NCBI GenBank assembly: GCA_040954595.2
Contig: CM082582.2
Location: 5,502,303 to 5,566,302, forward strand
Source of the DNA: Balanoglossus misakiensis
Lineage: Eukaryota; Animalia; Hemichordata
Length of the DNA: 64,000 bases
Direction: 5' to 3'
The notes beneath the pieces are model-generated. The model ran no database searches and had not been told where the DNA came from. It worked only from the letters and a program-made list of their open reading frames with translations. This document shows positions 1 through 44,248 of this stretch, in pieces; position 1 is the stretch's first letter; the number at the start of each line of letters is the position of its first letter. The position numbers and the translations under genes were made by a program.

Positions 1-1690
1 TGATGGCGGGAGAGGCCAACGACTTCACTTTCAGGTCATTTCCGGCATATTGTAATAATTCTGCAAACATATTCTTCAGAATACAACCAGCTTGTCTCTG
101 GCTTTCTTGATCCCAGGACCACCTTGGTCCAACTGCGTGGATGATAAATTTGGAAGGCAGTTTACCTGCGGTAGTATGGCAGAATTGTCCCGTTCCCAGT
201 CTACCGTTTTTCTTTACATATTCTTTAGATTCCCGGTATACGTGGTGGCCACCTGCATCTGCGATCGCTTTGCTCACTCCGCCTCCGTGGCTCAGTCGCC
301 CATTGGCCGCGTTAACGATGACGTCAGCGTTATTTTGGGTAATATCACCCACATACACAGAAATCTTTATGCCCTCTGCTGTTCTTTTCTTCAAACGTAG
401 GTCTTCCAGACATTTTGTGACATCAACATCTTCCGTTTCTTCTCTGTCAGGAGTAGCCCCACGCCGACGAGATCCACTTTTCTCCGGTCTGCCAAACACT
501 TCTTTGGGTGGACTTTTGGACGTCGACTCTTTGGCTGATTTACTTCTCGTTGCTGGAACGCCTCCTGCACCGTCCGACGTGACACGAACAGCAACGCCCG
601 GCCCTATTGCAGCCAGTGAATTTCTGCTGCCATCGCTTTCTCTACCTCTTTCATTTGGCCTGCTGTGCTTTGATGTTACGTTGTCTGAACTATTTCCCTC
701 CACCTTACCAATCGCTGTTCCAGAAAAACTTTCCTTGTCGTTTTTTGACGTGCTCAATTTTGTTGCAGGACCATCCCTAGCTGTCTCTGGGCTGCTGGTT
801 GGTGGACGATTAGACCCTTTCTTGGAAACTGAGGTTCGGGACGTCTCTTTCACTTTCACAGAAGAACCACTTTCCTTGTCATCGGATGAAAACTCGTGCC
901 TAATCATAGGTACGCCATCTCGTCTGTCTGGGCTGCTGCTAGTTGAGTTATCGTTTTCCACTCTGGCATCACCACCAGTTGAGGTTGGCGAAGTGACGGT
1001 AGATAGCTTAGTTTCCATCCCAGTCTTCGCCACAGATCTCTCGTCACAATCTCCGCCGCGTGTCACACTTTTGCCGGATGAGTGCAGCGGACGCGAGGAC
1101 TCTGCCGTCACATTTCCTTGCGATTCCTTATTTGAATTCGTCGTGTCTCCACTGCGCGTGATGTCATCAGACTCTGTGAAATTGTGATTCTGTATAGTTA
1201 CATCTGACTCCGGCGTTGGTTCATCGGTTCCACGAGATCCTGCTGTCGTTGCTTTCACATCGTCGCCGTTTGATGATGCTCCGACGCTATTTGCAGATAA
1301 CTTTCTGGATGATCGACCTTGGTCTGTTGTTGTCGATTTTTCTTTCCAACTTTCATTTCCTCCTTCTACTTTGAGAACTTCTTTCGTGACAGGTGATTTT
1401 GGTTGTTTCTCGTCCGCCTTTCTTTTTGCACGTGATACACCACCGCCCACGCTGCCCTTTCCATCCGCTGAAGCCGATGCACCTTTTGCAATGCTTGGAC
1501 CCTTGCCTGTCTTCACGATATCGAACAGTTGCGTCTGTGCTTCCTTCAACTTCTCAAGTGACGCTGCATAAATTACGTTATCTTCAATTTCCACGCCTTT
1601 TATTGTGTTTATACTGCGGATGTCACTTTTGCTCATAGTATAGAAATGAGGGAGCCACGGTACTATCTCTGCTTGAATTGTCTCGAATAC
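1..1690 (-). CDS. Large exon of the macrodomain gene (KH-like segment, linker, macrodomain)
   Basis: CAG acceptor at 1691-1693, then about 563 codons open to the window edge, with NAAN, HGGGV and HAVGP macro motifs. Confidence 0.88.
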
Positions 1691-3778
1691 CTGTCCGAAT
1701 AAATAATGTTTATAATACGATTTTAGTATCACAATTCCCCCTATAAATACAAAAAGCGTACAGTATCAGTTCGCGTCTTGAAAAAACACCGTCCGCACAC
1801 ATTAGCTTTTCACGATGACACAGAAAATTGTTTTTTTGCCTCTGGTGATAGATATCTGTGGACAAACAAGCGCCAACTTTATTTTCAAATTTCAATGACA
1901 AGACTGTTTACAGCTTTTGACAAGAATGTGGTTCACTATAACGAATGAAAAATAGTTACTACATGCCAAGCATGGGTCACTTTATCAGAAATACATAGTC
2001 AGTCGACGTCACTCCTCCGTATTTAATTACGACCGCCTGTCTTCGTCTCGGGGGTTTGCAGCAATCTGTCGATTTACTTCCCCGAACCTCCTTGTCCTCT
2101 GTCGCTTTTGTATCAAATCAGCTACCTTGCATGTTCGAAAAGATAATAAACCTGACACTTTTTTTACCTCCTGATGTTCCGTTAAGTCTGGCATTTCCCT
2201 GGTGGCTTGTTTCTGTTTACTTGCACACGATAGGGATGCAGCTACTGAAAATAAAATAACGGGGAGGGGGGCTTTAATATTAATATTGACAAAATATATG
2301 GAGATTTTCTCGCTTGAAAGAACAGAGTTATACATCCAACCACAATCACGTCGATCTGTCCATCATGGTGGTTGGATCGTGGTCCAACCAAATTAAATAT
2401 AGTTGGTCGTTGATCTCCTGGAATAACATTATCTAAGAAAAAAATATACATTGATGATTGAAACGAGTAACTTTTCATATCAGAAAAATAAAACCGTACT
2501 TACATTTTATATGCCGTTTGGGTTTACTTTTACCGGATTTCAAAGATTCAATCAGATTCTTTGTAAACGGATCCATTAGTGCGACCGGGCCTGTTGCGAC
2601 ACCCTTTTTCACGGTGATTCCGGCCGTACTCATCGTAATTTTACGCTCCTTTGCTTCGTCTCTAACCGACTGTTTAATTTGTCCAACCGCATTCCACAAA
2701 ACCTGCGACAAGCAAAGTGGTCTCGTCTAAAATGTTTTGATATACCCGTCCGCACCCAAACTGATACTGAAAGCAAGCTAAATTGTGTCAGCGTTGGCGT
2801 GCCGTCTCTTCGTGACCAAAAAAGTCGGACAAATTTATCCTCAGACATTGTAACTTGATTGTCTTGATACTGATTACGTCACTATTTTGGGAAGTGTGAC
2901 ACCTACATTTGCTTGTTGTACTCGCTAAAGCATGTTTACGCAATGATGTACAGGTGTTGACTGGAATATTATCGTCGACATTTTAGTCCGGACAAAATCA
3001 GCTGTCAACAATCACATTTCTGATTTTACGAACATGTATACAATAGGCTGTGGTTACCATGCAGCTGAATACTGGGAATGTCAACACGTTTTAGGGTAGA
3101 AACTGTAGTTGATACGCAGCATGATAAAAGTACAAAACGTGTTATTAAAAGTTAAGACTGTAAGAGGTTTATTCAACTTACGTTGCCACACGGTTCGAGT
3201 TTGAAAATTTTCGGGTGATCCTTTTTCAAAAACGTGTCCATATCTGTCAAGAAGTAACAAAGTGATTTATTCAACGTGAAAGGAACCTGAACTACTTGCA
3301 CATGATATGGTTTCTTGTAAACGAATTACAGAGTTAATGTATCATCTTGTAGACAATCGGTGAGCTCGGAATCTTTAAATTATTAATCTTCGAAGATTCT
3401 GTGGTATCATTTTCTCGTGGTCCCTGTCACTTTGCGGAGGGACTACTTATATCATTTTCCTGATTTTACTTAAGTTGAGCAAACCATGAGTTTTAACAGC
3501 ACAAATAGAAAACGGGTTATTTCCGTCGATCTTTTTCAGACATACAGACAATATCCCACTCGCACGTGTTTTCATCTTAAACAGTGACCCCATAACCTAT
3601 CCATGAAAGTTAATTTGTCGTGGTAATTTAACTTACGTTTTTTCGCCTCAAATGTAATGAGGTAACAAGTCCCATCTTCAGACAATTTGTAATCAATGTT
3701 GTCCAAAATTTTCTTCATTTTAGACTTGTTGACGTCATACAACCAAACGCTTCTTTCCATTCGCCCAATGATCTCCAT
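1..3778 (-). CDS. Macrodomain protein with PARP9/PARP14-like N-terminal layout (RRM-like, KH-like, low-complexity linker, macro); 3' end lies outside the window. Exons 3778-3637, 3243-3182, 1690-<1
   Basis: The minus frame is open from 1690 to the window edge. It encodes GIKISVYVGDITQNNADVIVNAANGRLSHGGGVSKAIADAGG...TTAGKLPSKFIIHAVGPRW...SLASPAI, a canonical macrodomain at about 2-373. Upstream exons have GTAAGT donors and CAG acceptors with matching phases (1, then 0), giving MEIIGRMERSVWLYDV...CYLITFEAKKHMDTFLKKDHPKIFKLEPCGN|VFETIQAEIVPW. The macrodomain call is firm; the family assignment is inference. Confidence 0.75.
2027..2726 (-). CDS. Candidate alternative terminal exons (2726-2504 and 2244-2027) of the macrodomain gene
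   Basis: TAG acceptor in phase 0, GTAAGT donor in phase 1, TTTTCAG acceptor in phase 1, and TAA at 2027-2029. The frame stays open across the join. Confidence 0.4.
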
Positions 3779-6750: not shown

Positions 6751-7038
<288 letters not shown>

Positions 7039-7430
7039 GGGAACTTATCTCAATTTCATCTTTTTCATGAATATTCTCATCCATGAAAGTATAAAACTTA
7101 AACACAAAACAGTTTTTCACGGTTTATGTTAACACATACCAATATATACAAATATAAACAAACACTTATTAACATACAAGGAGGAAGAGCTTCCTGTGGT
7201 CTATCATATATTTCATTTCTTTCATGAACATGTATTATATAATGTGCTATGTTGTGCATCTTTCACTCGAAAAAACACCACACAACTTCGAACAGATGGA
7301 CGTGGACTGCGAGAACAAAGTTCCTTCTCGTTTCTCTTCTCGCCCTGAGCGAGATGTTCGGGACTACCGGTTCCGTTAAGACGCATGCGCAAACGAAACA
7401 CGAAGGAAAGTGGCGGTGCGAGAACCTTTA

Positions 7431-7452
7431 ATGGTAAACTTGGTAGAAATGG
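7431..7452 (+). CDS. SEPTIN7: SEPT7 putative first coding exon (MVNLVEM, ending ATG G|GTAGGT)
   Basis: In-frame ATGs at 7431 and 7449 and a donor at 7453, within a CpG-rich promoter-like region. Confidence 0.55.
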
Positions 7453-10400
7453 GTAGGTTTTCCTCCTTTTTGCGCGACTTAACAGTGCGTATGCTATGTC
7501 GAATGAATCGCGGTATTGTTGTACGTTTGCTAGAAGTGTCAGCGTGATCTCGCTCGAGCGATTGGGCAACATTCTACGCCGCTCGGGACTTGGGTGTAAA
7601 AAATTAAGTCACTCGGCCCGGCCTGATACAGTCATGTGTATCGGAAGTGTGGGTCTTTGCCCAAGCTGTCTGAATGGGACGACTTCCTCCCAACACGGTT
7701 CTGAAAAAAGAAAGTCTTTGTCAATTTATTCTTGAAATATTCGACACATCACGGCCCATTTTTTATGCTAGTTCGGCGACTCGTTTCGTTCGAACGTATT
7801 TGGGCGGTACTATCACTATTAGTATCAAGTGTTTCTGTACGACGACTTTGTTTTGGGTAGTGTAACTGTAACTATATTTTGTCATTCTATTCTTGAAACA
7901 CCGTGCACATGCTTGTGCGGCCATCTGCCGTCAAGTAAAGAGCATCGTCGGGTATATTTTAATCACTTTAAATCATCAATGCAAATTAGCTGGAGAAACC
8001 ATAACATGTATGATTATGGAAATGAACAATGAGTTGAATGAAATCCATTGTTTTGACTCGACACACATTATTTGTATAGCGCACAGTGTGTTCATCAATT
8101 TCCTCTCGCAGTGGGCTAAGTCATTATAAATTAGTTTGTCTGGTTTAAATTTTAAAGTATGCGGAGTTGAGGAAGTGTGTAATTAAAGCGACTAATTTTG
8201 TCTGTTTGTTCTTTTTCTCCACTACCACCATTTACTACTCCTCACATTCATCATTGTGGACTGAAATCTGTCATCCATTGAATGATGACAATGACCCCAG
8301 CGGTAAGTGTCACACGAAGTGTAATATTTACTCCAATTCTTGACAGATTTCACATATTCCTTCTCAATTTTCAGTGTATTTGTTTTGACTCGGCCAAATC
8401 TCAAGTGTTTGGTATTTCCAAATTGCTTTGTGTTCAACTTCTTTTCCCTGGCCTGAGGTGACTCTCTCTCTCACACGTTTCCGTTTTTGGTTTCGGTAAC
8501 AGAACACCCGAGCCAAGGAACTGGAGGGATATGTAGGCTTTGCCAATTTACCAAATCAAGTATACAGGCGATCGGTGAAAAGGGGGTTCGAATTCACACT
8601 AATGGTAGTAGGTGAGTATTTTCTACATTAGTCTAGTACCTAGCCTATTAACCGCAGCTAGGTACTAGACTATTTCTACTTATGCTGTAGTCCTGCAAAG
8701 TTTTGTTACCAAATTCATTGAAACTATACACAAGCTTAGCGAATGCAGCATTATAAGTCCCTGTAAGGAACAGAGTGTGTGTTTATCTCTACTTAGCACA
8801 TGCTCTTTCCTTGAGTGTTTATTACAGGAAAGTGTATAGGTAGTATTTTTGATAGTGGTAAGTGATCCATATAATCATGTGGTGAAGTCAGAGGAAGTTG
8901 GCATCCATTAATAGCTCTACTATTCTGTATGTCAGTGTTTCAAAAGAGCCTAGGAAAGTTGATGCATCTCTCAGACTCAGTCACACATCTTTAGTACCAG
9001 GATGGTAGATTTACATGATTTCTAGCGTACAAACTGTGGAGAGGACCCATTGAGTGGTTGTGTGCAAACTAAATATTTTTAGTTTTGCCATGAGCATGAA
9101 ATCACACCATTATTTTCCTGCCAGCAGGTAATAAAAATGAATATTGCCATTCCAGGGCTAATACAATGCTAATGAACCATTTCAGTGACATCCATTGGGA
9201 ATTAACCACAGACAGGTCAAATAAATAGCTATACCAACCAGTGTGCAGATAGATAAGGTTGTACCAGTCAAAATAATAACAGCGAATTATTGTGCCTTCA
9301 AAGCCCTTTTACCATGTTCCTCTTTATGGCTGGAAATAAAACAGATGGAGAAGTGTAGGTTTGCTCTAAAGAAGATCTGATGTCTGTGCTGGCATTTGTT
9401 TTTAATCAGTACGTCAAAAGAAGCCATTGTCCAAACAGTACTGTAGTAAGATAGCTGATACCGTTGAGATATTCATGTGTTAATTCAATGGGTTGTGTCT
9501 GGGCGAGATGGCGATTTAAATGGGTAATTGTAGTAGGTTTTATCAGTCAGGAAGCAGAGGAGGGCTGTATTGGTGCAGTTTGTGATGTTCCAGGGTGTGT
9601 CAGTCTAGTGATTTCGGCTGCCCTACAGAAACACTGCGGCCTGCATTACGTAACACCTCCCCTCCAGGTGTATTTTTGTTGTTGTAGAGATATATACTGT
9701 TCGGGGGCATTATTATTCAAATGGAGATGGGCACTTTCCACTGGAACTGCAGCACTTTCAAATCATTGGGTAAACATAGATGAAATGTACTTGTTTGGCT
9801 GTTTAGTCGGAATGCTGACAAGATGGTTGCGAAGCCAGGGTCGTTGTAGTATTTGTACTCACTACTGTGTGAGTGATATGCTATTTGTATTTCGTTGACA
9901 AACTTTTTCGTGACTATTGAGTTGACGCTCTGCCAGCTCAAAAGTATCATCTAAATGTAGGTATACTGGACATTGCATGGATACAGATAATGTAATATAG
10001 TAACTGAACTATGCTGCAGATACAGGTTGACACTCCCTCTGAAAAAGTGACATTCAACAGGAAACCGTGAGGTGGGCAAACAGTCAGGACATGAACATTT
10101 ATGAACCCATTTGAGTTAAAATGCTTTTTGATCTTGCTTCCTGTTGAAAAAATGGCCGCAAATACCATGGCTTAATTAATGTTCATAGGCTTGGAAATGA
10201 AAAGGTTGGAGAGCTTGATCTAGTGGCAAATGTCCCTCCCTGTAAGCTCATTTGCATGTAACTGAAGTGGCACAGTTTAACAATGTGGGCCGGTCTCACA
10301 ACTTGCTGGCTTGTTTTGCCAGCAATAGTAGTAACCCCACTGACAGGTCCCATGTGATTTATGGTCGCACTGACAATGAGACGATGGCTTTGGGTTTTAG

Positions 10401-22400: not shown

Positions 22401-25400
22401 GTTGATTTTGACCAAGAAGTTTAATCATGATGATCACGGGTAGATAATAAAAAAATAAAAAATATCCTTCTCTGAACAGACATACATTTTGTTGTTGTAC
22501 ATTGTACCTCTATATAAAAAATCACAATTTTCATAAGAATGTATATCTAGCATAGTGCAGTGAAATCTCCTACAGGATAGAGTTGGTAGGAATGAACCCT
22601 GTCTTTCAATTTGCATTGTGGTAATTACAAGGCTTCAGTAAACAGTTACATAACTGCGTGACATGTCACAAATCCAGCCCCGGAGCATTTGCTAGTTCTG
22701 ACATCCCCGCGGACAAAGGTGCAACAATGTCAGTTAATTGGACCAATCTGTGCATCCATTGTGAGATGATTTACATGCAAGTGAGCTGAGCTGAGATGCA
22801 AAAGCGTTTGGGAATTCTTTCTGTAAATAACAATGAACCGGGGGTTATTTTAAGAACGAGAAAACACATCATTTATTCAGATATACACATACCAGACCTT
22901 GATAACATGGTTTCTGACTGAGTGAAGCCAGTGCTCAGAAGGTATTGGCTACCAGTACATGTACTGGGGGAGGGGGGGGGGGGGGGTCTCTGTAGACAGG
23001 TAATTACCCAATTAAAAGAAGGCATATTCTGTATTCTAAATTTTGGCTTTGTATAAAATGACTACGTGTACCATGTCATTCTGAATAAATAATCGACTGT
23101 TTCTACCAAGCCTCAATATTCCGACCCATCCTGGTTGATTATGGTCAACTCATCTCACTTACGGTAACCGTGACACCCTCCATCACTCGGCCATTATCCC
23201 CATTTCTGTTCCATTGCATCTCCATTGCTCACAGTCCATGCCTCAGTGTATTTACTCCGGCCAACCTGAGGCTGTATCATGGTTCACTCACTCACTCGTG
23301 CATGTTCTGATAACTGTACACAAATCCGCCATTCAAGCATGCTTCCTTCAGTGGTTAGATGAAAATTGTGCGACACCAGCTCTGCTACAGCGCTCACACA
23401 CACACAGGTGTGTTACAATACACAGTGCATCATATGAATGGATTCTATGAATAATATATCGACTTTTGTTTTGTTTTGTTACAGGAGAGTCTGGCCTTGG
23501 TAAAAGCACTCTGATAAACTCCCTCTTCCTGACAGACATCTACAATGATAAAGAACATCCTGGTCCATCACTACGAGTGAAGAAAACGGTCTCAGTGAGT
23601 ATATTGTAATAGGTACTTTTTGTAGACACTGAATATGACAGACCAAGAATACATATACATGTATGCTATTTTTTATATTACAGTCAAACCTGTCTATATT
23701 TGTCAGTCAAGGGGCTTTCCTAAACTGGCCTTTATAGACAGGTGGCCTTTACACTTACAGACAGGTCAATCAACGTACATGTAAATTGCACAGGGACTGC
23801 AATAAAGTGGTACTATATAGAGGGGGTCACTAACACAGGTTTGACTATAGATAAAGAATGACCCTCTAAATGAGGTGATTTCTGAATGGCCAGTATATAT
23901 TTCAGATAATCATTCATTATCCAATCAGACACTGAGACAGCAAACGTGTATGCCTGTTTTTTAACACTGTCACCCAAGGTGTACATTTCACACTGGCCAC
24001 TTTACAAAAAATAGTAGTTGGCCTCTGCTCAGCAGTCAGCCTGCTCTCACCCAGTGTAAATGGATTTCGTTATCATCGCCCGTGTCATCACCAACCTGGC
24101 AGACTTACAGGGAATGCAGATCAGTGTCAGCCCCCCAGGTCAGATGTCAAAGGTCGGGGAAACCGGATCGGCAGAGACTGTCAAATCAGTCTAAATACTA
24201 AACCAACAACAGTGAAATCAGACATTCGCCTTCTTAAGTTAACTGACACGAGGGTTCTTCAAGGCAGAGATAGCGTCAACCTATGCACTTACAGAGTTCA
24301 CTTTTAATGAACTAAACGTTTTAAACACATAGATCAGTATTTGGGTTTCATCCCTGTAGCCTTGGTCACAGTTTGTAATCTTGAGTGATTTTATTTTCTC
24401 TGCAAAATATGACAAGCCCACAAAAAATACCATACTTGGTTCATGACTGGTATTAGAATGTAACCAGTGAACTGTGATGAAGTCAAATCCATTGACAGGG
24501 GAGCTGGGTTATAGGCTTTTAGCTTCTCATAGGATGCATGATTTGACAACATCCACTGTACATACAGAGAGAGAGGGAGAGAGAGACACACACACACACA
24601 CACACATGCACACACGCACACACACACACACAACGTGCACAGACATCCAGACAGTAGAGCTGTAAAACAATCTGTGTAGGGAAACTGGATCACTGCCTCC
24701 TTCAAGACGCACCAATTGGTTGTGTTTGGACGTCTGGACATTGAACAAGTCCTTGCACAGTTGCAAACAAACCGACGCCCGCCACTAATTGGCGCGCCCT
24801 GGCAAACATTTGTGTAAATATTTGACTGCCAAGAATAACTGAAGTCCTGGCCAGGAGGTTGGCCACCTGTGTACTGACCTCCCAAGAAATCTGAAACACC
24901 AAATCTGGCTTGGCGTGCTGAACCAGATGCACATGGAAACATTTACAAATATTCTCGATAAGATGCCACTAGAGAATGTCTCATTTCCAGACTCGTTAGT
25001 GGATGCTGTTCACTTTACGTGCAATCAGTCTAGGACCTGGGCATGGCCGAAAATATCCTCTCTTGGGTTAACTGTGCTATGTGTTTACACTTACGCATTT
25101 GCACTCAGTGCCTGACTTTTGGCAGGCAAAATTAACAGTGTCTTCTCGATGCCCCCAAATCAACAGAGAGATGCCCAGCTGGGACCAAGGCCAGCATAAT
25201 GCAATCTGCATTATTCGGGCTACAGTTTTACGCTGACTCAAACTCTAGGCTGAACCTAAACCCCGTCCTATATGGCAAATTGAGACTGAAATCTGGCTGA
25301 GGTCGGACTTGGCATGACCAACATAAACTGCCTGAATTAAAGCCTACTTCTGACTGGGTCCGATATGATAGCTGAAGGGCTTGGTCTGTGTTTACCACTG

Positions 25401-28400
25401 GAAAGTACTAACTCAGGCCGAATAGGTAGAAAATATTGTGAATGTTTTATTTAGGAAAAAAAAAACATTTCAAACAGAGTAGTTATTCAATTCATTCAAC
25501 TCCAGTAGTTCATATATTACCAATGATGTGTTGGGTACTACACTGTACATGGGCGTGTGTGTAAACACTGTCAAGCATCAGTGTCAGTATTTCCTGTTTA
25601 AAGATGATGTCAGCAGCTCACACTGCGAAAGTCTTCAAATTCAGAGAATTTCTGCAGACTAAATATTTAACACAGACATCCCCACAACGTAAATTTCTAA
25701 ATTGTCCAGTACATGTAATTAGTATCATACCTGTCCAGAAGACCTAGGAAAATGACTGTCAAGGGAGAACACAAGTTTACTTATTCTCAAAGTGAAATTT
25801 TAGCCAGGCAAGCCATGTATGAGTCTGTCAATAATTTTGAAATTATTAAATATCATAGAGATGAGTTGGTTCACAAGAAATGCACATGTGGGAAGAACTG
25901 AATAATTCTATAGTTTTGGGGATGATTAAAATAATTTGTGAGTGATTGTCAATGCTAACATTTCTGTCAGTCTCACTATGCATGCCATTAGGGTAACACA
26001 TGGTATTTTGCTGGACCTGCGTTCTGTAATTATAGTTCTGTACACCTGCTACCCTGGCTGTGGTTCCCTGGAAATGAGTGCACATGCAAACATTGTCACT
26101 AAATGGCTAGGTTCAAGGAATTTCCTGATAGTTCAGCTCATATACAGATTGCTTTCATTTCTTCTTTTCCTGTTTCTATAAGGCGAACAGTGCAAGCGTT
26201 TCTTTGAAAGTGCTTTCACTGTTTTTTACAACCAGGTCTAGACTGTAGTCAGACTCCCTAGTTTCACAGACAGAGACAAAATGGCAGACCATATTTTAGC
26301 ATGCTATATATATACACGTATATCACCCTTAAAACTAACACCATATATCATATTTATATTTAGAAACATTTATTATTTACCACGCCTGATTAGATTTCCA
26401 CATAAAATATCGTGAAACGTGGGGGCCTAAAATAGATGATAGCATTTTACAGTGTTGACTAGTGTCCAGTTTCATCAACGTTATCATTGACATAATCCAA
26501 TCAGTGATTGGCTAATCATGGAAATGATAATGTGATTATAGCATTGCCAGTGTTGGGATCTGTGTTGGTTTCATCGAAAGTCAATGTTGATTTGGCATCG
26601 CATTCCTTTCTCGTCATTAGAATAACATGCTCTGTATCAATTCGAATTGATAATCGCATTTGATGACGTACATGTTCTACATTCATGTATGCAGGTCTGT
26701 GTGTACAATACAACTAACTCGATGCTAAGCCACTAGGAAAATTTTGACAGCAACACATCGTAACATCTGAAAGATACGCATGGCTGACTGCCACCAGTAG
26801 TGTACTCTGGACACACTGAAGATTCAGCGTGTAATACAGAACAATGTTTGACTTTCAGAGATCAAAACAAAGTCCAAAGTAGATAAACAGATGCCGTTTA
26901 CGTGAATTACCAAAGCAGAATATTAACAGCTATGCCGACATACATAACACAGATGATGAATTTAACAGACGGCCCAAGGTTGAGGACCTGGCACGTCTGA
27001 AAACAGAGCTGTCGACTTTTGGCAAACAGCTGTAACTAATAAAATTTTATTCCCAACATTGTTAAATGTGAATATTTACGTTACAAGTCAAGGAGATCTG
27101 CCAAGCATAGTTCATCATAGTGCTGATAATGCAGATAATGTAAAAAAAATCAGTGAAGAAATGTATGTTTTGACTTTTCATGTGTCTGTAAAATCCCCTG
27201 TCTTGCTACTTGTCAATGCTACAAAGCTGGTTCCAGTGTACAAGGAAGTGGTCCATGTTGCCACTTGGATGCATATGGTTCATGCCCTCGTTGGGATGAT
27301 AGACAAGTACATGGACATACACATAAAATTCAGATTTTACAATTTGGTTATTGATCAGCTTTATACAGTATTTCAGGGATGGTGTCAATCAGAATAGTTG
27401 GGAGTGACATCGTCTTTCTGGTATCATGTCAACATTTGACATTGTGCATCATTCTAATCTTATTCGATACTCTCAACATTGTTACATGGTACATATGAAA
27501 CTCAGTTGTCAGCTGTGGAACCCGGGTCTGTTTTCCTCATTCGAGCACCGAAACACTAAGCTGTAGACAAGCATTGATCGCAGTTGTTTGTGATATCCAG
27601 CGAAAGTGGCCAAGAGATCACAGTACAACCTGTGTCACTCCATGTCAATGAATACATCCCATACATACGCGCGCGCGCACACACACACTCTTGACTTGAC
27701 TTGCCCTCAAGTTTGAGCAGACTCATGGGAATATACAGATCTTGGCTTCCGCCATCATCACCAGTCGGGTCATGATTTACTGTGATGGAGACCCCAGGGG
27801 GGATCGTGGTAAGCTTTGAGATGTCAGCAAGCAGTGTGGGATCCAATGGTGCATTCCCACTCGAACACACACACACACGCACACGAGACATGGATCTTGG
27901 CACCAAATCTTCACCAGCTGAGCATTGCAGATCAATGGATCACTGGAATGTATAGACATTGTAGTCTAGTCTGCACTCATATAAATATGTGAATCTATAA
28001 AATAAAGATAGCTCCGCTCAATATTTCCTCATCTCTGTTGATGAAGAGAGAATTACTTATCCCATAGTATATTTACATGAGATATATTTCATTTAAATGT
28101 AAAATCTTGAAGTGCAAAAAGTTCCATGCCATGAAGCTAGTGATTGAACCACTAGGGATGATGAATACGTAGTATTAGATTTTTCATGAAGGAAATTATT
28201 TAATGAAAAGTTCATCAACAACAATTCTGCTGGCAAATGTTAGCCCTGTGCTTTTGTTGTGCAACAAGGTTATAGTAACTTATTAGGAGTGTCCATTCCC
28301 TGAACACAGCTGCTGTTTCTTATTCCTCAATGACATCATACTTCTGAGCCACAAGACCAATTACTGGCAGATTACCAGATGGCTTGTTGCATAAAATATT

Positions 28401-31400
28401 GACTCAAACTCATTATCGGCACCCACACTGTGTGCTTGGTTCTATCAGAGTGAACTTTCCTTGAACCACAACTGAAATGAAATCCAGCATCACAACTAAA
28501 ATTCTCTGCAGTCATTTCCTTCTTGCCTCACTGACGTCACACAGAGGGCAGTTGGTCATGCAAAGGTCATATTTATGTAAGACTTATGTCTGGCTGAAGT
28601 CTGAATATGCTTTCCCCCCCCCCCCCCTGCATCAAAGGTGATGATAATCACAATATGCCATCCGTCAGAAATAAAAAGTTTGGTAGCTATGCTTGCTACA
28701 CTGATTCAGTTTAAGAATACAGACACCCCCCCCCCTCCAGTACATGTATCTGAGTACTGCACTTGTAGACTATAATATAGATGAATGGTATAAGAAGTAC
28801 ATGTATGATGTAATGAGGAAACAAGTGCTATCTCCATGGTAACGAAGCCAAATCAGAGGTTAACCAAGTCATGTGATATATATTCTTATTTACAGGTGAA
28901 TACATCCAAAGTTTTAATCAAGGAGGGTGGTGTACAGCTTCAACTGACAATCACAGACACGCCAGGATTTGGAGATGCTGTCGACAATAGCAACTGGTAA
29001 GTTTCGACACCCTTTGTCTGTAGACGACTTTCTCAATTTCCAATTCCATGTCAATATACATCAAAACGTGTATTGTCAAAGTTATGATTGGCAGTGGTCA
29101 CAATATGTAAACAGACACAACACCAATGGCATATGGTTCCTAGATACAATATGAGCAAATGTAACTTATAGTATACATGTATATTCATGTGACTGCATTT
29201 AGTACAGAAAGACTCTCTATCAAATTATTCTAAACTTAAACATGTATGTCTTCAGCAGACTATCTGTTTTGAAATTTACCACCATAAAGGTTAAAATAGA
29301 TGAAAATTTTGATAAAAAGCAAGCTTTTTTAAGAAGTTATGAAATTCGATATACATGTATTCCCCACCCCTTTTCAAATTCCCAGTTGAAATTGACCCAT
29401 AGAATTCAATTGAACTTTCGCCAATGCATGGGGATTTCAAACGGTAAATATTCTCAAAAATGAACCATCCTGGGTGTTCCTCTGCAGTGTTTCTGATTGC
29501 ATTGCGATGTTCTGTTCTTCATTCTAGTTGGCAACCGGTCATCGATTTCATTGATAACAAATTTGAAGACTATTTAAATGCAGAATCAAGGGTAAACAGG
29601 CGGTCAATGCCAGACAATAGAGTCCACTGCTGCCTGTATTTTATTGCTCCTACTGGGCATGGGTAAGTCTTGGTTCGATCCAGAATGAGTGGATAAATTC
29701 AATAATACGGTTGGCTGTTTCAGAGTTTAAACTCGAAATGTTTGACTCACACTTGTCAATAAAAGTAGGTAGAATTTACAATGAACAGCAGGAAATAACC
29801 AAAATATTAACAAAGTCATGCCCAAAGCAGGTGTTGAATTTAATAATACTTCCTGTTGATATGCAAATTTACAATGTTTCATGCATAAATAATGAAGTTA
29901 CAGATTATAGTCATTATTTGGAAACATACACATGACTCTGTGATATGCGAATGAATTAGTTTCGCAACTTTCAAATTTTAGTCTGAAACTCACTTCTATG
30001 CCAGACCTTGTTGCCTGGGACACGCAGACTTACATTCAGAGTTCCAAATATCCAATAATCTGTTCTGATTTGATGAATTTTTGTATTTCTTTGCAGGTTG
30101 AAACCGTTAGATATAGAATTTATGAAGAGACTTCATGAGAAGGTGAACATTATCCCATTAATAGCTAAAGCAGACACGCTGACCCCAGAAGAGTGCAGAC
30201 AATTCAAAGAACAGGTAAATGTTATTAGAATACATTATATTGATAGAATAGGTAGATAGTTTTTCCGTGTACAACATTGGTGTACAGATGGATCACCCAC
30301 GCTTTAGTAACAATCGCTGTCCTCAACCGTAGTCATTCACGAACATTACCAAATACCACACACATCCATGAGAAAATGATGCATACTACCATATTTACAT
30401 ATAAGACAGTACATGTGTTCTGCAGTAAAGTACTTGGTTTCCCCCCACCAAAGACGACTGCAGTCACCAGATATGAACAGATCATGATGCGCACGTAATT
30501 GCTACTGGTCTCTGCGGATTTCTTCATCTGATATTGACGAGATGAGTGTCGGGGATGTATTTGGCAGTACCGGTCTCTCTGCAGAGTAGATTCTCATCAA
30601 TAGGTCAGCTGAGGTCATTCCACATCCTCAGAATGGTTTGGAACACATGCTGACAACTAAACAAAACTGAGATCAAATTATGTATAACATAGGATTCAAT
30701 TACTTAAGTTCCTGGTACATGAACTGAGATTTGTCAATTTCACATATTAGTTAATAACAGTCTGTGGGTTATGTGGTGCTCAGATGCAATCTTAAATTTT
30801 ATGTTAAGTCTTCAACAAATTATAGTGTACACAGATTTGGCTACTTTCTTTGCTAAAAATTATAACATCTGCCCTTCTTCAAATTACTTAACATGTTCTG
30901 TTTAATACCATTCTGTGATGTAATGTAACAAGAGTGTGTTTCTTGTTACACTATGAGTAAAGCTGGTAACATCAAAAGTCACAAAACACACACTGCCTGT
31001 TTCTGTGCTATATGTAGTCATACCTGATATTACAAGACAAGCTGATGACAAAACATAACTTGCTTTGATGAGTTCAGGATGAGGCAAGTCTCTTTGTCAA
31101 TGGTTAAAACAATCTTTATGGTTCGACCACACTAAGGTGGTCTTCTTCAGGGTTCAGATTGACTGGTCAAGCAGAGTGTACTCTCAGGTTGTAAAAGAGT
31201 GAATGATGCATTTCATTGATAGTATGTGGTATTCATATGAAAATAATGTGTCAAGGCACTCTACATACTCTCTGATATCCACAATCCACAATCTTTACTT
31301 CTTGCTGCAGATTATGAAGGACATTCACGCCAACAAGATCAAGATCTACGAGTTTCCCGAAGTGGAAGAGGAAGATGAAACGAAAGAGAACAACTCCAAA

Positions 31401-33082
31401 AACACCCCACCACCTCCTACATTCAAGGTAAACTAACAATTTGAGATTTTACAGTGACTTTGAATATTTAAAACACTTTAACATGACTTTTATTATAATC
31501 ATATTTCAACATTACTGACTGTAAGTGTAAGCATGCTTCATCAGTATCCAATTTCAGTGCAGCTCTCAGACTTCATACAAGATATTGTTTGCTCGTGTAT
31601 TTTTTATTACATAGAGATGTTAGGAAAGAGAGGCAGCTAGCTTTTCATGTGTTTTCCAGATGGAGTATGAAAAGCATCATTACATAAAAACACCACAAGA
31701 CATATGCATAACACCTGCTAGCTGAAATATATTCATCCTTGTCAGCCAATTATGCTGGCTATTTTGACTTCTGGTAGAAAATAATGTTTTTAAAATCTTG
31801 AGGTTAATACTTCAGAAAGTTCAGTGTATGCTGCCCACGTTTGACATCTCTCGAATGCATAGAAAACAATATCTTACCCAAGTCTGAAGCTGCATTGAAA
31901 TTGACAATTGTATAATAATTATGGTTGAAGGGATTTAAGTGTGTAGAATACTTGAAACCCCTCCGATTTAATTAACCATGGTATAACTTTTGTATTTCAG
32001 TACTACTAGTTGGTTGCAAGGCGTAAGCATGATTGGTGTATATTGCATGTAACTCTCCCTCTCCCTTCCCCCTCCCCCTCCCCTTCCAAGCATTATCCTG
32101 TGTGAGCAGCTTCTCTTCTAAGAATATTGTAAATTTTTCTTTCTTTCCTCTGTAAGTTCCTTCTCAGTGTTCCATTGTTACTACGTACTCACCTTTAAGT
32201 TGCATAAAGGGCTGTCTTTGAGATTATAAGTGTATTGCCCGCTGTGTTCTGTGAAGCTGTAAAAACAAAAGCAATGGGCATTATGTCTCTAGGTGGCACC
32301 ACTTCTCGAAATGATTTTGCATCTGGCGAACTACAAACTTACCCAAATTATATTCTGTGCAAAGAAGCACCCTCTCTGGCTACTTTTAAGTTCCAACATC
32401 ACAAATCTAGCTTTGACTTTCTGTACTGTGAAGTGGCATGATCCTTGATAGACCAATTCAGCTTTTGCAGTTTGTTTTGGTCTATGAGGAAAACAAATGA
32501 CTCTGTGGAAAAGGGATGGTAACTATCCATCTATTTTTCAGACTCTAGCAATTCTGTTCTTCTGAATAATCTCAACGAAAGCCCTTGCAATCAAACACAA
32601 AGGGTGTTTCTCTTCTGTTGTGTGCTTTCTGTCTGTTATTTATTTTTCTTTTGTCTTTGTGTATGAATGTTTCATTGCTTTATTTCTGTCATCAGAGGAG
32701 ATTTGACACTAAAGAGAAAGAAAAAGAAAGAGAAAAAGAAAAAGTTAAGGAAAAAGAAAAGCACAGTTTGAAGGTATCTACATCCTCAAGCTCAGTCTAC
32801 ATAGTAATAGACTTCACCAAGTAGCACACTGACGCAGTGTGTGTATGTGTTCTCACACAAACCAAGTTTGCATGTCTGTACGCCATGTCCAGATATTCTG
32901 TATGCAAGAAGTTTTGAAAAATGGAGATCACTGGCCAGTGTATTGAATAGTTAGCAACATAATAGAATGATATGAACATTTCATTTGGACGATTGTATAT
33001 CCTTTGAAGACTTGTCCGTAAGGACAAAACATTCTGTGACATCAAGGTGATGTACAAAAACAGTTATCAATCAAACGACCAA

Positions 33083-33130
<48 letters not shown>

Positions 33131-36100
33131 CAAACAGTCATAATACATGTGTTATGCATTAAATAACTGAGATAACAAGGTTGATCTCTGTTTTCTCAAC
33201 TTCCTGCAAACATAAACCAGTTGTGAGGGTCTCAGCTGGACACTGGCGATAGTGTATATAAAGATATAACCATAGCTGCATCTTTACACTTCCAGCTTTC
33301 CTCTAACGACTAGTGCTTGCCTTGCATGCTCTGTGTTACTGCTACAAGTGCTGCGACTCTGCTGCTGCTGTTAGGCACGTAATCTGACTGCGGCGCAATA
33401 ATCAACGCTTCTTCGTTCACAGTTGACGTTTTACTATTGACTTATTCTGTGTTATTATTAATGGATTGTCACAGACATTGACTTTTTCCCCCTGGTAACA
33501 CTACATCGCCTGTGTGTTCACAGGCTTCATGAAATTGTAAAAAATGACCTACATTTAGTATTACTAATGTTGGGTTAATGTACAATGTATAGCTCATGAA
33601 AACTGGGTACCATTTGAGCAGAGAGAAAGACATGTTTTCACAACTTCATGTTGCTTTAATAATTTGATTCATGGTTTGAATGTACCCATAACAAGACTGG
33701 ATTAACTACTGACTTTTTGCTCATGTACTTAATTTTTTAATTAACGCAAAATATTTGCCTCTTCAGTAGTGTTAAAATTATGAATAACTGGTTTACAAGG
33801 AATCGGGTGTATACAAGTGTGAACAATGTAGGATGACCTATTATCACCATGGCAACAACCATGATTCTAATAATCATTATTGACTGTGGTGCACACACAC
33901 CTAATTTCATTAATGCTTGATTGGTTTCTCATCTCACAGTTTGTGTAATATACTTTAGACCCAAAGTTACAAGAAGAAATGGAGTTATTGCATGTTGATT
34001 GGTTTGTGTCTGTCTGTTTATTTGTTTGTTTTCAGTTTGTGTTTCTATTCTCTGTGTTCTCTCTGTCTCTGTCGTACACCACACACAACAAAACAACACA
34101 ACACAACACAACACAACAAAATCACTTTCTAAGTTGTTGGACTCGTCATAGCAAGTGACAGATGAGAGTGATAATTGCATAGCCCGTTGCTTTTTTGAAG
34201 ATGGGCCAGTATCAAACTTTAACAACAGACTTCACCCGATCAACTTTTCTGTGAACAAGTGCATCATTTAGTGACCTGAATCTTCACATTGGGTTTTGTT
34301 CTCTAAAGAGGAACTGGGGGTGAACTGGAAGGGTTAAACAAGGCAATGTCTTTAGTTAGAGTCAATGTGTTGTTCATTTGAACTCTTTCAGGAGAGAGTG
34401 CCCTTTGCAGTGGTCGGTAGTAACACAATTTTAGAAGTCAGCGGGAAGAAAGTAAGAGGACGACACTATCCATGGGGCATTGTTGAAGGTACGTTTTGCA
34501 TATAACGCGTGACCTCAACTGGAATTCAAATTGAGATGTTCTATACATGTAGGTCAGTGGTAACAAACCCTAAATCCCACTGCCACAAGCTTGTGCTATT
34601 GTCATATGCATCCTGTTTATGAAATACTTTTGAAAAATATATGTCAATATGAAAACAGTTCATTGGTGTACAAGGTACTGTTTCGTCGTTCAGAAAAAGG
34701 GAGGATGTAACCATGTAATTTCATATATGCCATTTCCTTTCTGTTCTCTCAACAGTTGAAAATCTGGAGCACAGTGACTTTGTCACACTTCGGAATCTTT
34801 TACTCCGAACACACATGCAGGACCTGAAGGACGTTACAAACAACGTGCACTACGAGAACTTCAGATGTCGAAAACTTACGCAAGTTACTGCGGGTGACAA
34901 TAAACCGACCAGGTCCAACAAGTAAGCTCATGCGCTGTTTTTTACTGTGTATGAAAATGAAAAGAGGAGAAGTTGGTGTGAATTGGATGGAAAGCTCACA
35001 TAACAATGATTGTGGTTGTGACAGATTGATCTGTACTATTCGACATAAGCTTGTAAATAAAGAAGAACCAAACTTGAGATTATTTTTGCAGGCATGTGCT
35101 CTTATAGAAATGGAAAATTAGCAATGTGTTCATATCTCCAGACCACTATGAACTGAGTATTAGAATTCAGTATTGCATATCAGTTGACTGTCCCATGGCA
35201 GTATGTTGGTCTGCTGTATGACGTTACCGTCAAATGGTATTCTCGTTACCGTCGTACATTTTGCAGTATCACTGATGTGACTCTTCTGATCTTTGCAGGG
35301 TTTCCACCAGGAATCCGATAACGCAGTTTGAAGAGGAGAAGAAGGAGCACGAGATGAAGATGAAGAAGATGGAGAGCGAGATGGAACAGGTCTTTGAGAT
35401 GAAAGTGAAAGAGAAGAGACAGAAACTGAAAGATTCAGAAATCGATGTAAGTGTCTGAAACAGTCATCATTTGTGATGTCCGCAGAATTCTGTTTGAGCA
35501 GAATAAACATTTTATTTTCAATTCTAATTCAGCGGTTCTACGTGGTGATCTACAATGCTTAAATCAAAACTTTTCACTTTCCTGTTTCTGAATTCAACAT
35601 AAGATCCATTAGTGTAAGTGACCGAAAGTAACCAAGGGATATTTATTTGTAGTTTTGGAGACTTGTTCTATTTGCTGTCATAGTAAATTTGAAATTTGTC
35701 TTTCATCACTCATAAAAGTTTCGTCCTTTAAATATTCAAATACTCATGTCAAATTATTTTTTCTTCAATCTTTAGTTACAAAGGCGATATGAACAGATGA
35801 AAAAGAGTTTGGAACAACAACAGAAGGATCTGGAAGATAAAAGACTTCAATTCGAAAGAGAGAAACACGACTTTGAAGAGAGACAGAAACAGAAGGAAGA
35901 TGAACTGAAAAGGCGACAGTTAGAGAACGCTAAGTAAGTTGGTGATTACTTTGTCTTGAATATTCTAGGGTGATTTCCTAGCCTTGCAGATGTAGCTAGT
36001 GGGTCAGAGGAACAAAGCAACTGTCTTATTTACAGTGAGAATTAAAGATTGCCAGGAAAATGAGCAACCCAAGTTAATATTGTTACCTTTGTAAAGCATT

Positions 36101-36198
36101 GTCGCACACATGATATTGATGATAATGCATCTTGTTTTCACAGGACACTGGACTACAACAAGAAAGGCAAAGAAAAGAAGAAGACCTCTCTATTTTGA
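7431..36198 (+). CDS. SEPTIN7: Septin-7 (about 445 aa). Exons 7431-7452, 8301-8302, 8503-8611, 23485-23594, 28896-28996, 29528-29662, 30097-30214, 31311-31427, 34392-34488, 34756-34921, 35299-35446, 35776-35933, 36144-36198
   Basis: The spliced translation contains [46 protein letters not shown] (G1), DTPGFGD (G3), AKAD (G4), VPFAVVGSN...GRHYPWG (septin unique element), a coiled coil [24 protein letters not shown], and a basic tail KKTSLF*. All junctions are GT-AG and phase-compatible. The first two exons are less certain. Confidence 0.95.
8301..8302 (+). CDS. SEPTIN7: SEPT7 candidate 2-nt microexon (CG)
   Basis: CCCCAG|CG|GTAAGT, with branch point GACTAAT at 8190-8196, a pyrimidine tract and no AG until 8299. 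It converts phase 1 to phase 0. Confidence 0.65.
8503..8611 (+). CDS. SEPTIN7: SEPT7 exon ([36 protein letters not shown])
   Basis: AG acceptor, GTGAGT donor and the septin polybasic region. Confidence 0.95.
8629..8672. mobile_element. 44-bp TAG...CTA hairpin element with a near-perfect 9-bp TSD
   Basis: TIR TAGTCTAGTACCTAGC / GCTAGGTACTAGACTA, with flanks TTTCTACAT and TTTCTACTT. Confidence 0.7.
12590..12748. mobile_element. CAG...CTG-ended MITE (hAT- or P-like); sister copy at 55464-55634 in the opposite orientation
   Basis: Ends are CAGTGGTTTTG...CAAAACACTG. Internal GATTTGGGAACC(C/T)TGGTAA and ACTGCATTG blocks are shared with the second copy. Confidence 0.6.
14157..14367. mobile_element. 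TA-flanked MITE (Tc1/mariner-pogo-like)
   Basis: TIR TACTGTAAAACAC...GTGTTTTACAGTA with internal CGCGAAA motifs; a partial second copy lies at 60818-60948. Confidence 0.85.
23485..23594 (+). CDS. SEPTIN7: SEPT7 exon with the P-loop ([20 protein letters not shown])
   Basis: TTACAG acceptor and GTGAGT donor. Confidence 0.96.
23681..23847. mobile_element. Tigger/pogo-like MITE
   Basis: TA|CAGTCAAACCTGT...ACAGGTTTGACTA|TA. Confidence 0.75.
24563..24631. repeat. (GA)n(CA)n compound microsatellite
   Basis: Directly visible in the sequence. Confidence 0.85.
28896..28996 (+). CDS. SEPTIN7: SEPT7 exon ([33 protein letters not shown])
   Basis: G3 motif with canonical splice sites. Confidence 0.96.
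29528..29662 (+). CDS. SEPTIN7: SEPT7 exon ([24 protein letters not shown]...[16 protein letters not shown])
   Basis: Septin motif with canonical splice sites. Confidence 0.96.
30097..30214 (+). CDS. SEPTIN7: SEPT7 exon ([33 protein letters not shown])
   Basis: G4 AKAD motif with canonical splice sites. Confidence 0.96.
31311..31427 (+). CDS. SEPTIN7: SEPT7 exon ([22 protein letters not shown]...TPPPPTFK)
   Basis: KIKIYEFP motif; phase 0/0. Confidence 0.93.
32696..32773 (+). CDS. SEPTIN7: Candidate SEPT7 cassette exon ([26 protein letters not shown])
   Basis: 78 nt, phase 0/0, long U-rich AG-free tract upstream, purine-rich body and an AAG|GTATCT donor. Confidence 0.6.
33085..33130. repeat. 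(GATT)n microsatellite
   Basis: Directly visible in the sequence. Confidence 0.92.
34392..34488 (+). CDS. SEPTIN7: SEPT7 exon ([32 protein letters not shown])
   Basis: Start of the septin unique element. Confidence 0.96.
34756..34921 (+). CDS. SEPTIN7: SEPT7 exon ([36 protein letters not shown])
   Basis: Septin unique element. Confidence 0.96.
35299..35446 (+). CDS. SEPTIN7: SEPT7 coiled-coil exon
   Basis: [43 protein letters not shown]; a second in-frame acceptor AG lies at 35309-35310. Confidence 0.93.
35776..35933 (+). CDS. SEPTIN7: SEPT7 coiled-coil exon
   Basis: [27 protein letters not shown], with canonical splice sites. Confidence 0.94.
36144..36198 (+). CDS. SEPTIN7: SEPT7 last coding exon ([17 protein letters not shown])
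   Basis: Basic C-terminal tail typical of SEPT7; TGA at 36196-36198. Confidence 0.92.
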
Positions 36199-38420
36199 AA
36201 AATGGCAATCCATGTGCATGGCCTAGTATAAGGTTCTGTTATTATTATATCACTATTGTCGAAATTAATCCGGCAAATGGCTGGGCTATGGTGGTGTCTA
36301 ACAGCTCGCGAAAGGGCCTTTCCCATGATGCAGTGCTCAGTCCTTGATACAGTGAAAAAGGGGGCAGCCAAGTTTTTGGCCCTGGTTCAGAACAACACAC
36401 TTGAGAATACAGTGTGTTTCCAAGTAAATGAATAATGATGGCCAGTCTTGGAAGTGAAAACGTATTCAAATTTGTTTTATTGGGGGTTGCCTTAGTGACA
36501 TATTCTTGGCTGTCTAGGGATTTCAATGATTGACCCAAGCCGTTATTTTCTTCATTATATTTTGGGGGAATTGAAAAAAAAAACAGTGTGCATACCAAAC
36601 ACTGCAGCTGCTGACAATCGAGTCGCACAAATTCTGCACCGGCCACGAGCAAACCTGAACCGCCATGACGCCAATTTGTAGCAAACACAGTGCACTGCAT
36701 CATGGGATAGCCATTTTCTGCTCGCTGCGTGACACAGACCAACTGTCATGTCATGTCAACTGCAAGTATTGGTGGCAGAAAAAAAATTGTGAATTTACAG
36801 AACAATCTTCATCCTGTTTTTTTGCAACTAGGGTAGCTAGCCAGTGCAGTGTGATAGACGTCGTCGTCCTCAGTGACATTTTTATAACTTAGCATGTTAC
36901 CATAGCAACAGCATTAAATAGTGGCAGACTGTATCTAACGTGTCATTATATCAGAAAATGATAGAAATCGTATAATCATTAAAAGCACTCAACACAGGAT
37001 GCAAATATTTTGTACTCGAAAGAAATTTATAGATTAACCCAGCTTCCCAAAATAAGAGCATATATCATGTTTCAAGAACTTAAATTGCTTTTTTGAGCAA
37101 AAGTTTTCTGATTGCAGCTAATACAAAAAATGTTGTAGTTTAGAAATTGAAAAAAAAATGTTAAATTTCCCAGTTGTCTACAAACACAGTCGATTCGTGA
37201 TTTAAATTCTAATATTGGTGCTGATGATGATAAAGAGAAGAGAAAATTTCATTCTTATGCTTTTCTTTCCTGCATTCCAAAATCTCAACACAAAAAGATA
37301 CAGTTCTCTACGTGTGTTCTGTACTGTCATTACTTACATTTAATGAATTAGAATCTTTGTTGTTGCAGCTGTCATTTCATAACATCAAAATTCTACACGG
37401 GATGTTTCATGTCCATAGCAGACAACAGTGTGGTTGGATGGGGGGCCATGTTTAAAAATCTTTTTACCGCCATAACCATAAAAATATGTTTGATCTCAAC
37501 CAGACTGCATACAAAAATCTTAATTTTACTTGATGTAGTTGCAATTTAATGACATTTGGAAACAAGGACAATTTTACGTATCAAAATCGGGAGAGTTTCG
37601 TTGAGACAAAAATTGTGATGGTGAGGAATCTGCTTCTCACAAGTATGTGTTTCTCCAGGCAGAAGCTGCACACACCTTCAAGACAAGTGGTTGACTCCTG
37701 CGGTGGTGTCAAAGGTCAACAATCATTTCAGGTTTTATTTCCTTGGTTCAAGTATTATATCCTAATCCAGGATTCATTCAAATATTGGCTGTAAAACAAG
37801 TCAAACATGAGATATTGGCAAAATCCAAACCACACTGTATAAGAGCTGTGCTACGGACTAAAAAAAACTTTGCTTTATTCCAATCCCTTATATACAAATA
37901 ATCAGTAGATGGTAGTTATATTTAAAATACATGTACATGTAATATAATAATACTTTGTTTCGTTATTTTAAGAATGTACGTTTGCTTGCTTTGTAGATCT
38001 ATAATCGTCACTGTCTACATTGTTTACAATGTGCTAAAACTATGCATATGTATGTTTATATCATATTCTTTATGCTCGGTATTTTTATGTATTTTAGGGG
38101 AGGGTGTAACTTTACCAGAAATGGGGGGTTGATGCATGTTTTACTGTAAGGAAACATGCCGCATCTGATACCTACAATAGTATTATATGATTTTGTTTAT
38201 AAAAGCTAACCAGTTTTTGTGTCTGGCGAAAGTTTTTTTTTCCATCTTATAATTTGAACATATTAAGCTAACAAAAAAAAAACTTGCTCTTGTTTAACGG
38301 ATTATCAGTTTTGCTTGTATTTTGTAAACATTTCTGTCCTACATATCCCTTCCCACACTCCCCCCGAAGTTTTGTCCCAAAACTTCATGAATCATGCAGG
38401 GCAATCTCAAGACAGATGAA

Positions 38421-43127: not shown

Positions 43128-44248
43128 ATTAACAGTTAACTCTGATTTCTGCAAAGTTTGTGATTGGTGTCGGGCTAATAAACTCACTATCAATGTTGAC
43201 AAAACAAATTATATGATAGTGAAAACATCCCGCAAACATGTAGTCATCAATGGGACTTTAGATATTGACGGGAAAAGACTAGATTGTGTCCCATCAGCCA
43301 CATACTTGGGGGTCACTCTCGATCAAAATATCAACTGGAAAACGCATATCCAGAGGGTCGTAAAAACTATTGCCCCGAAAATCGGTATTATCTCTCAACT
43401 TCGCCACTTTGTTCCAAAATATATTCTTCTCCTGCTCTACAACTCGCTTATCCTCCCACACATCACTTACTGCATCGAAATTTGGGGCAATACTTTTACG
43501 ACTTTCTTGGAACCAATTTTTCTTTTACAAAAGAAAATCACTCGCCTGATAACGTTTTCCGACTTCCGTGCCCACACTCCCCCCTTATTTAGACAGCTTG
43601 GTATCTTAGACGTTTTTAAGTTATGTAAATTTCAAACTTGTCTTTTTGTTTTTGATATGTTAAACGACCATTATGCCCAGGACAAAACCCGTTATATTCA
43701 CTCTATTCCCCACAACTATCCCACCCGTTTTTCCACTGATGAAAACTTTTATATACCCAGAATTAGTCTTACACAAAGTAAACACCACATAAAATATGCA
43801 GCAACCAATCTATGGAATTCCCTCCCAATACATATAAAAAGGATCACATCTCGACACTCATTTAAGAAAATGTTAAAAGCCCACCTTCTCCATGACGAAC
43901 AGATTGCGTAAGACTTCCACCGATTTTCTGATTTACAAGACCATGTATTTATCTATTTAACTTTGTCAATTTATTTATATATCCATTTTATTTCCCTGCC
44001 AAATATTGTTTACTTCTTTTATAGTATATAATTGACTCCTCAGTTCAGCACTCGTGTATTTTCCTTTTTCAATTGGAATCTTCCATTTGTACTGGTCACG
44101 GACTAGACTAGTTCCTAACGAACTAATTCCGTGACCATATCGGATGAATAGTATTTTATCTTTTTCTTTGTTCCAATATTCATATGTATATAATTTTTTC
44201 ATTCGATAAAATAAATCAATTACAAATTACAATTACAAATTACAAATT
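43128..44248 (+). mobile_element. 5'-truncated non-LTR retrotransposon (CR1/L2-group): RT C-terminus, 3' UTR and (TTACAAA)n tail
   Basis: The ORF to 43911 contains WCRANKLTINVDKT, YLGVTLDQNINWKTHI, LYNSLILPHITYCIEIWG, LQKKITRLI and LWNSLP. AATAAA followed by short tandem repeats at about 44210-44248. Confidence 0.92.

Follow-up and report, generated by a model that had tools for sequence, protein, structure and literature searches.

How is the first coding exon of septin-7 joined in frame to the conserved core of the protein? This locus of the acorn worm Balanoglossus misakiensis raises the question: exon 1 ends in phase 1, and the next full exon starts in phase 0. The first-pass annotation of the window (the whole stretch of 64,000 nt analyzed here) proposed that a microexon of only two nucleotides, CG, lies between them. 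The layout that it described is indeed present, with ATGG/GT in phase 1 (slashes mark splice junctions), CTAAT, an AG-free zone of about 110 nt, AG/CG/GTAAGT, and a phase-0 exon 3.

The Septin-7 Front End and Its Gene

The features of the locus are the following:

7384..7391, + strand: promoter-proximal motif CATGCGCA
7449..7452, + strand: 3' end of exon 1, ATG (7449-7451) plus G (7452), phase 1
7453..7458, + strand: donor of intron 1, GTAGGT, 6/9 matches to the donor consensus
8189..8298, + strand: AG exclusion zone, 110 nt without AG
8191..8250, + strand: predicted distant branch point (CTAAT, A at 8195, or -106) and pyrimidine tract
8282..8302, + strand: extended reading MMTMTPA, in frame, with the same donor as the microexon
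8301..8302, + strand: candidate 2-nt microexon CG (acceptor AG 8299-8300, donor GTAAGT 8303-8308), completing the Ala-2 codon
8503..8611, + strand: exon 3, phase-0 start, 97% identical to Saccoglossus septin-7 over 38 residues
23485..36200, + strand: remaining septin-7 coding exons, nine mapped at 23485-35933 and the last near 36145-36200

Introns 1 and 2 measure 848 and 200 nt. The acceptor of the microexon stands apart from the other ten mapped acceptors of the gene, whose AG-free zones span 25-57 nt as against 110 nt here, and whose pyrimidine tracts adjoin the AG, whereas none lies beside the microexon AG. No second AG that would give a 5-nt form of the microexon was found in the window. 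Including CG restores the frame and skipping it shifts the frame, as the first-pass annotation had stated. With CG the frame stays open across 12 exons, and skipping leads to a stop at codon 44, in exon 4, with at least eight junctions downstream.

A further in-frame ATG upstream of the exon 1 start (7431) and two phase-0 donors (7434 and 7443) had been overlooked. These donors could in principle reach exon 3 without the microexon, and match the consensus at 5 and 4 positions, respectively, versus 6/9 for GTAGGT at 7453. We rejected them as the main route because they are weaker and because relatives keep Ala-2.

The motif CATGCGCA, which we take to be an NRF1-like promoter motif, is also present 91-123 nt 5' of the exon 1 ATG in seven of the nine coral-type loci described below. 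By eye, we also noted a long (GAT)n repeat (6756-7038) about 500 nt 5' of exon 1; the tract is broken by two perfect inverted arms of 21 bp (6862-6882 / 6906-6926) that flank a loop of 23 nt, and may represent a small mobile element.

The gene belongs to the septin-7 group. The exon at 29529-29663 has a Pfam Septin match, and the translated exons are 97% identical to Ptychodera flava septin-7 over 378 columns. In the tree, the protein is sister to P. flava septin-7 (100/99), with Saccoglossus adjoining, inside a 16-row clade that is separated at 100/100 from two SEPT2 rows, the sole outgroup. A Lys/Glu-rich optional exon at about 32696-32775 (+) matches the insert of P. flava isoform X1.

Other observations concern the surroundings of the gene. 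On the same strand, 3' of septin-7, an ORF at 46543-47517 (+) carries two helix-hairpin-helix blocks (Pfam HHH_3) and is EEPD1-like. Human SEPTIN7 and EEPD1 are neighbors, so this linkage may be old. Upstream, a divergently oriented gene occupies 1-2700 (-), and its stretch near 290-370 looks by eye like a macro domain. A 275-codon open frame at 43084-43911 (+) resembles the end of a LINE-type reverse transcriptase; it had no Pfam match at 0.001.

The Two Bases in Proteins of Relatives

Our survey of septin-7 N-termini covered 37 named species, all of them hemichordates, echinoderms, amphioxus, or anthozoans; vertebrate sequences, two partial proteins, and three hybrid records of Branchiostoma were excluded. 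Met-Ala directly precedes exon 3 in 14 of the 37 species and a longer front end with a terminal Ala in 25; nine have both forms and seven have neither. For example, Saccoglossus XP_006816945 begins with MANTKAKELE. The Met-Ala join is also present in full-length ORFs on three Logan contigs (P0126, P0424, P0426) of 1.5-3.6 kb, which are too short for introns. Because genes were called on the contigs themselves, the join would not be an artifact of genome mapping. In Macaca, both Met-Ala and Met-Val-Ala versions are present (P0030, P0405), a pair that fits the 2-nt and 5-nt forms of the human exon given in the accessible text of PMC9929638.

Several hemichordate models lack this start. In the three RefSeq models from the closest relatives (P. 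flava X1 and X2, Glandiceps X1), translation starts downstream, at a Met close to the 3' end of exon 3. A more recent model from Saccoglossus (XP_077865661) reads as if exon 1 were joined directly to exon 3 and has no start. Standard aligners are described as missing exons shorter than 8-10 nt (PMC7821500, accessible text), which would explain these truncated or directly joined models, although they are also compatible with real skipping. The models of some relatives place a different front end before exon 3: Exaiptasia and Actinia have a Met-Ser start, and the front ends of Acanthaster and Amphiura do not end in Ala. In the extended form of Patiria, Phe precedes Ala, so no AG acceptor can be encoded there. 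Five further models (P0418, P0420, P0451, P0184, P0256) have Met-Gly before exon 3, as expected if the predictor had read two bases into intron 1 for frame repair.

In all likelihood, CG (8301-8302) is a genuine septin-7 exon of two bases, and we predict its inclusion in nearly every message beginning with exon 1. That the exon is real and included seems to us very probable.

Recurrence in Other Loci

By chance alone such a layout is rare. YAG-NN-GTRAG occurs three times on the + strand of the window, and AG/CN/GT[AG] preceded by 90 or more bases free of AG is found once. We scanned metagenome contigs with an exon 3 alignment, which gave 126 confirmed matches, and analyzed 80 of these. In the window plus the 80 loci, both strands (873,406 nt), the AG/CN/GT[AG] pattern was found 13 times, and 11 of these lie just upstream of septin-7 exon 3; the remaining two are on opposite strands and have a poor donor.

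Among the 80 matches listed, 29 continue into exon 4. A further 14 are genomic and show a phase-0 acceptor in front of exon 3, and 36 are genomic without a visible exon 3 acceptor (in one of these, L066, the contig begins at exon 3); one more, L049, was left unparsed. No coral- or deuterostome-type exon 3 start was found in the 29 listed loci that continue into exon 4. The microexon layout (AG/CN/GT after 95-141 AG-free bases) is present in 10 of the 14 listed genomic loci that bear an acceptor, nine of them coral-type and one fish-type (L037). We assigned loci to corals because named coral proteins match them; exon 3 of L071, for instance, is 100% identical to Orbicella faveolata septin-7 across the matched part. 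Seven of the nine coral loci are near-identical (Orbicella-type), leaving about three independent coral types.

The two bases are CT in L037, CG in eight coral-type loci, and CA in L075, and Ala is always kept. The first base is invariably C and the second G, T, or A, as would be expected if the latter is the free third position of an Ala codon. Exon 1 ends with ATGG/GT in eight of the nine coral-type loci (the ninth is too short), and coral intron 2 measures 91-107 nt. In the other four loci with an acceptor (L039, L046, L048, L052), neither a microexon nor an exon 1 donor of the form ATGG/GT[AG] was seen in the 224-1380 nt inspected upstream; lacking a donor of the searched form, these loci are uninformative.

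Thirty-five protostome-like genomic loci (e.g., L001, L007, L010, L023) have no intron before the equivalent of exon 3. Instead, 34-139 open codons precede it and encode a long charged N-terminal extension, resembling mollusc or arthropod proteins.

The layout and its recurrence are plain in the DNA. Conservation is deeper than the first-pass annotation had proposed, reaching corals in addition to deuterostomes. In a comparison of corals, fish, other deuterostomes, and protostome-like loci, the 2-nt exon would date from the cnidarian-bilaterian ancestor, and the arrangement appears to have been lost in protostome-like genes. The microexon had been called obligatory, which holds for transcripts that start with exon 1 but not for septin-7 as a whole, given the other front ends joined to exon 3 and the 35 loci without an intron there.

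A Predicted Extended Form Sharing the Donor

The AG-free zone of the window contains three ATGs (8282, 8285, 8291), all in frame, and the first-pass annotation had offered MMTMTPA as an alternative first exon. An open in-frame ATG is present in all 11 AG-free zones examined. After shuffling, one would be expected in 16-28% of cases, which, multiplied over four lineages treated as independent, gives about 0.003, a post hoc figure. Coral DNA upstream of the microexon encodes extended peptides known from proteins: MASIKKTSTKA is found in Orbicella XP_020628728 and on a Logan contig (P0414, P0428), and its counterpart in L057 matches P0448. Full-length extended ORFs are also present on short, unnamed contigs without introns (P0042, P0428, P0448).

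The extended peptide differs in length between coral genera by whole codons. When eight of the nine coral-type loci are aligned, the extended frames of the seven close loci differ only at two synonymous third positions, one of which is the second base of the microexon. L057 differs from these seven in the extended frame by a 3-nt indel, one synonymous codon, and two replacement codons. In four sea urchin species MPAYTGAA or a one-residue variant is kept. Between phyla the extended peptides are unrelated, and no extended hemichordate protein was found among the proteins of relatives. The fish septin 15 group (P0175, P0326-P0339), a group of vertebrate paralogues, has a conserved front end that starts with MIERP, is mostly Ala-terminated before exon 3, and loosely resembles the extended frame of L037; it may descend from the extended exon.

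We infer both spliced forms from the proteins of relatives. The extended reading is in frame and has an extended counterpart in 25 of the 37 species, nine of which have both forms. Rather than an alternative to the microexon, it appears to be another conserved way of using the microexon donor. MMTMTPA is predicted to be the 3' part of an alternative first exon or of an exon that retains intron 1; a start in intron 1 and retention of intron 1 predict the same junction. The microexon junction and the extended-exon junction are expected side by side, not one instead of the other. Overall, we lean modestly toward a functional extended form.

A Proposed Distant Branch Point and Coding Spacer

We propose the following mechanism. 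In messages starting with exon 1, CG would complete the codon for Ala-2. An exon of 2 nt would be too small for the acceptor- and donor-binding complexes to sit side by side; if branch point and tract are shifted upstream by about 100 nt, clear of the strong donor, the factors that mark the two ends could avoid collision. The spliceosome would pick the first AG downstream of the branch point, so no other AG would be tolerated in the zone; this is a known rule for distant branch points (PMC1431707, accessible text). The spacer, AG-free but otherwise free to code, would double as coding sequence for an alternative N-terminus that runs up to the microexon donor, and transcripts that start in intron 1, or retain it, would give septin-7 a few extra N-terminal residues.

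The window has the sequence hallmarks of a distant branch point, namely a long AG-free zone, a branch motif at its 5' side, and a pyrimidine tract. Similar branch-point-like motifs lie at -102 in L037, at -82 in L064, and at -86 or -88 in the seven Orbicella-type loci; in L057 the candidates are less clear (-83 and -105). Of the human AG-free zones that span at least 100 nt, only 20-50% indicate a distant branch point (PMC1431707, accessible text). By analogy, we consider it probable that the distant branch point is used, and the order of splicing is likewise suggested by known systems.

Weighing the Alternatives

The microexon could be real and the extended form a mere splicing intermediate, with intron 2 removed first, that was made into gene models. 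Short microexons tend to lose the downstream intron first in an SRRM4-dependent set (PMC10250204, accessible text), which would produce exactly such an RNA, and the lack of relationship between the extended peptides of different phyla points the same way. However, an intermediate would hardly keep its frame across coral genera through whole-codon indels, carry an in-frame ATG in 11 of 11 zones, or appear as full-length extended ORFs on the short intronless contigs P0042 and P0448, and we find this account rather unlikely. The converse, in which only the extended exon is real, AG/CG arises by coincidence within coding sequence, and exon 1 either does not code or is joined through a phase-0 donor, can draw on the strong donor at 8303, on the donors at 7434 and 7443 with the ATG at 7431, and on the several gene models that join exon 1 directly to exon 3. 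Yet it leaves unexplained the Met-Ala proteins of 14 species and of intronless contigs, the conserved ATGG/GT of exon 1, and the branch point, pyrimidine tract, and AG-free zone that lie 5' of the extended ORF in corals, fish, and worm; we hold it to be very improbable.

An on/off switch for septin-7, as suggested by the first-pass annotation, would make the microexon a regulated cassette whose skipping causes a frameshift and message decay. The stop at codon 44 with at least eight junctions downstream suits this idea, as does the enrichment of long AG-free zones in alternatively spliced exons (PMC1431707, accessible text), but regulated skipping was seen in none of the data examined, the AG-free zone has no TGC motif, the extended form would bypass the switch, and the comparable MPC1 exon is constitutive (PMC9929638, accessible text). 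We regard such a switch as improbable. The same annotation had also considered a recursive-type site. In a recursive splice site, AG is directly followed by GT and nothing is left in the mRNA. An acceptor and a donor 2 nt apart do recall a ratchet for the removal of a long intron, but the introns are short (848 and 200 nt, the second 91-107 nt in corals), the acceptor is followed by CG and not GT, and the frame requires the two bases, which appear as Ala in the proteins of relatives. A ratchet is therefore extremely unlikely, and the zero-length site in the strict sense is contradicted by the Met-Ala proteins and by AG/CG/GT.

A real 2-nt exon with a displaced branch point, a donor shared with the extended form, and cnidarian-bilaterian age is, in our view, quite probably the best explanation overall. 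A broader version, to which we give even chances, is a 110-nt module with three roles (distant branch point, AG-free spacer, and coding alternative front end with its own start) that predates the coral-bilaterian split, lets corals, echinoderms, amphioxus, and fish choose between two N-termini, and was lost in protostomes.

Implications

If this explanation is true, an exon of 2 nt, the shortest class annotated in human, belongs to an arrangement older than bilaterian animals. Cnidarians and bilaterians split more than 600 million years ago, and the exon would have survived since then even though fusing it to its neighbor costs no protein change. Such long survival despite cost-free fusion would suggest that the splicing arrangement as such has a function, and one candidate open to testing is the donor shared with an extended N-terminus. 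The locus would also offer a natural multi-species model of exon marking by the spliceosome where the complexes that bind the two ends do not both fit, and coral introns as short as 91 nt suit minigenes. Finally, it would account for truncated or odd septin-7 N-termini in public models of P. flava, Glandiceps, and several corals and fish.

Comparison With Known Systems

The first-pass annotation had mentioned a human SEPTIN7 exon 2 of 2 nt or 5 nt, and both lengths are indeed in print: human SEPT7 exon 2 is given as 2 bp, the shortest exon class together with GRK6 E16 (PMC6549324), and SEPT7 microexons of 2 bp and 5 bp are described as alternative, the 2-bp one as untranslated (PMC9929638). 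The window CG shares with it the gene, the length, and the position between the ATG-G of exon 1 and an exon of the conserved core, and is likely its orthologue, the human side resting on the published length. The accessible parts of these two papers give a length record only, without invertebrates, a branch point, or dual use. In the literature outside subscription papers, we found nothing on invertebrate or cnidarian conservation, age, or dual use of SEPT7 exon 2, and SEPT7 does not appear in the main text of five splicing papers (among them PMC7821500, PMC1431707, PMC10250204, and 10.1101/2021.05.27.446076). The accessible parts of PMC8632122 and PMC11233389 mention SEPT7 in other contexts; the former reports a C insertion in SEPT7 RNA.

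According to the accessible text of PMC9929638, the 4-nt exon of human MPC1 is constitutive, uses branch points at -64 and -68, and continues to be spliced after shortening to 2, 1, or 0 nt. Like the septin-7 microexon, MPC1 exon 2 is tiny and frame-shifting, and its branch points and pyrimidine tract are displaced upstream; its branch points lie at -57 to -68, versus the predicted -82 to -106 here, and no coding use of the spacer, as proposed here for septin-7, is reported there. Exons with distant branch points similarly have the branch point and pyrimidine tract 5' of an AG-free zone of about 100 nt, but the verified cases in the main text of PMC1431707, where SEPT7 is absent, are alternatively spliced.

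Neural microexons of the SRRM3/4 type are also very short and combine a strong donor with weak acceptor signals nearby, but are described as tissue-specific, with a UGC motif near the AG (PMC10250204, 10.1101/2024.09.17.613571, accessible text). Skipping of the septin-7 microexon, in contrast, shifts the frame. No TGC is present in the 110-nt AG-free zone of the window, and we rejected an SRRM-type microexon.

Hybrid first-internal exons, as described in the accessible text of 10.1101/2021.05.27.446076, likewise use one donor for an internal and an upstream-extended exon. Both forms were found in nine of the 37 relatives, none of these a hemichordate. In septin-7, the internal form is only 2 nt, the extra codons fall within the AG-free spacer, and the pattern extends from corals to fish. 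The human 2-bp exon type is thus already known; what seems new, against the literature covered, is its probable age and its architecture, with the proposed dual use of one donor.
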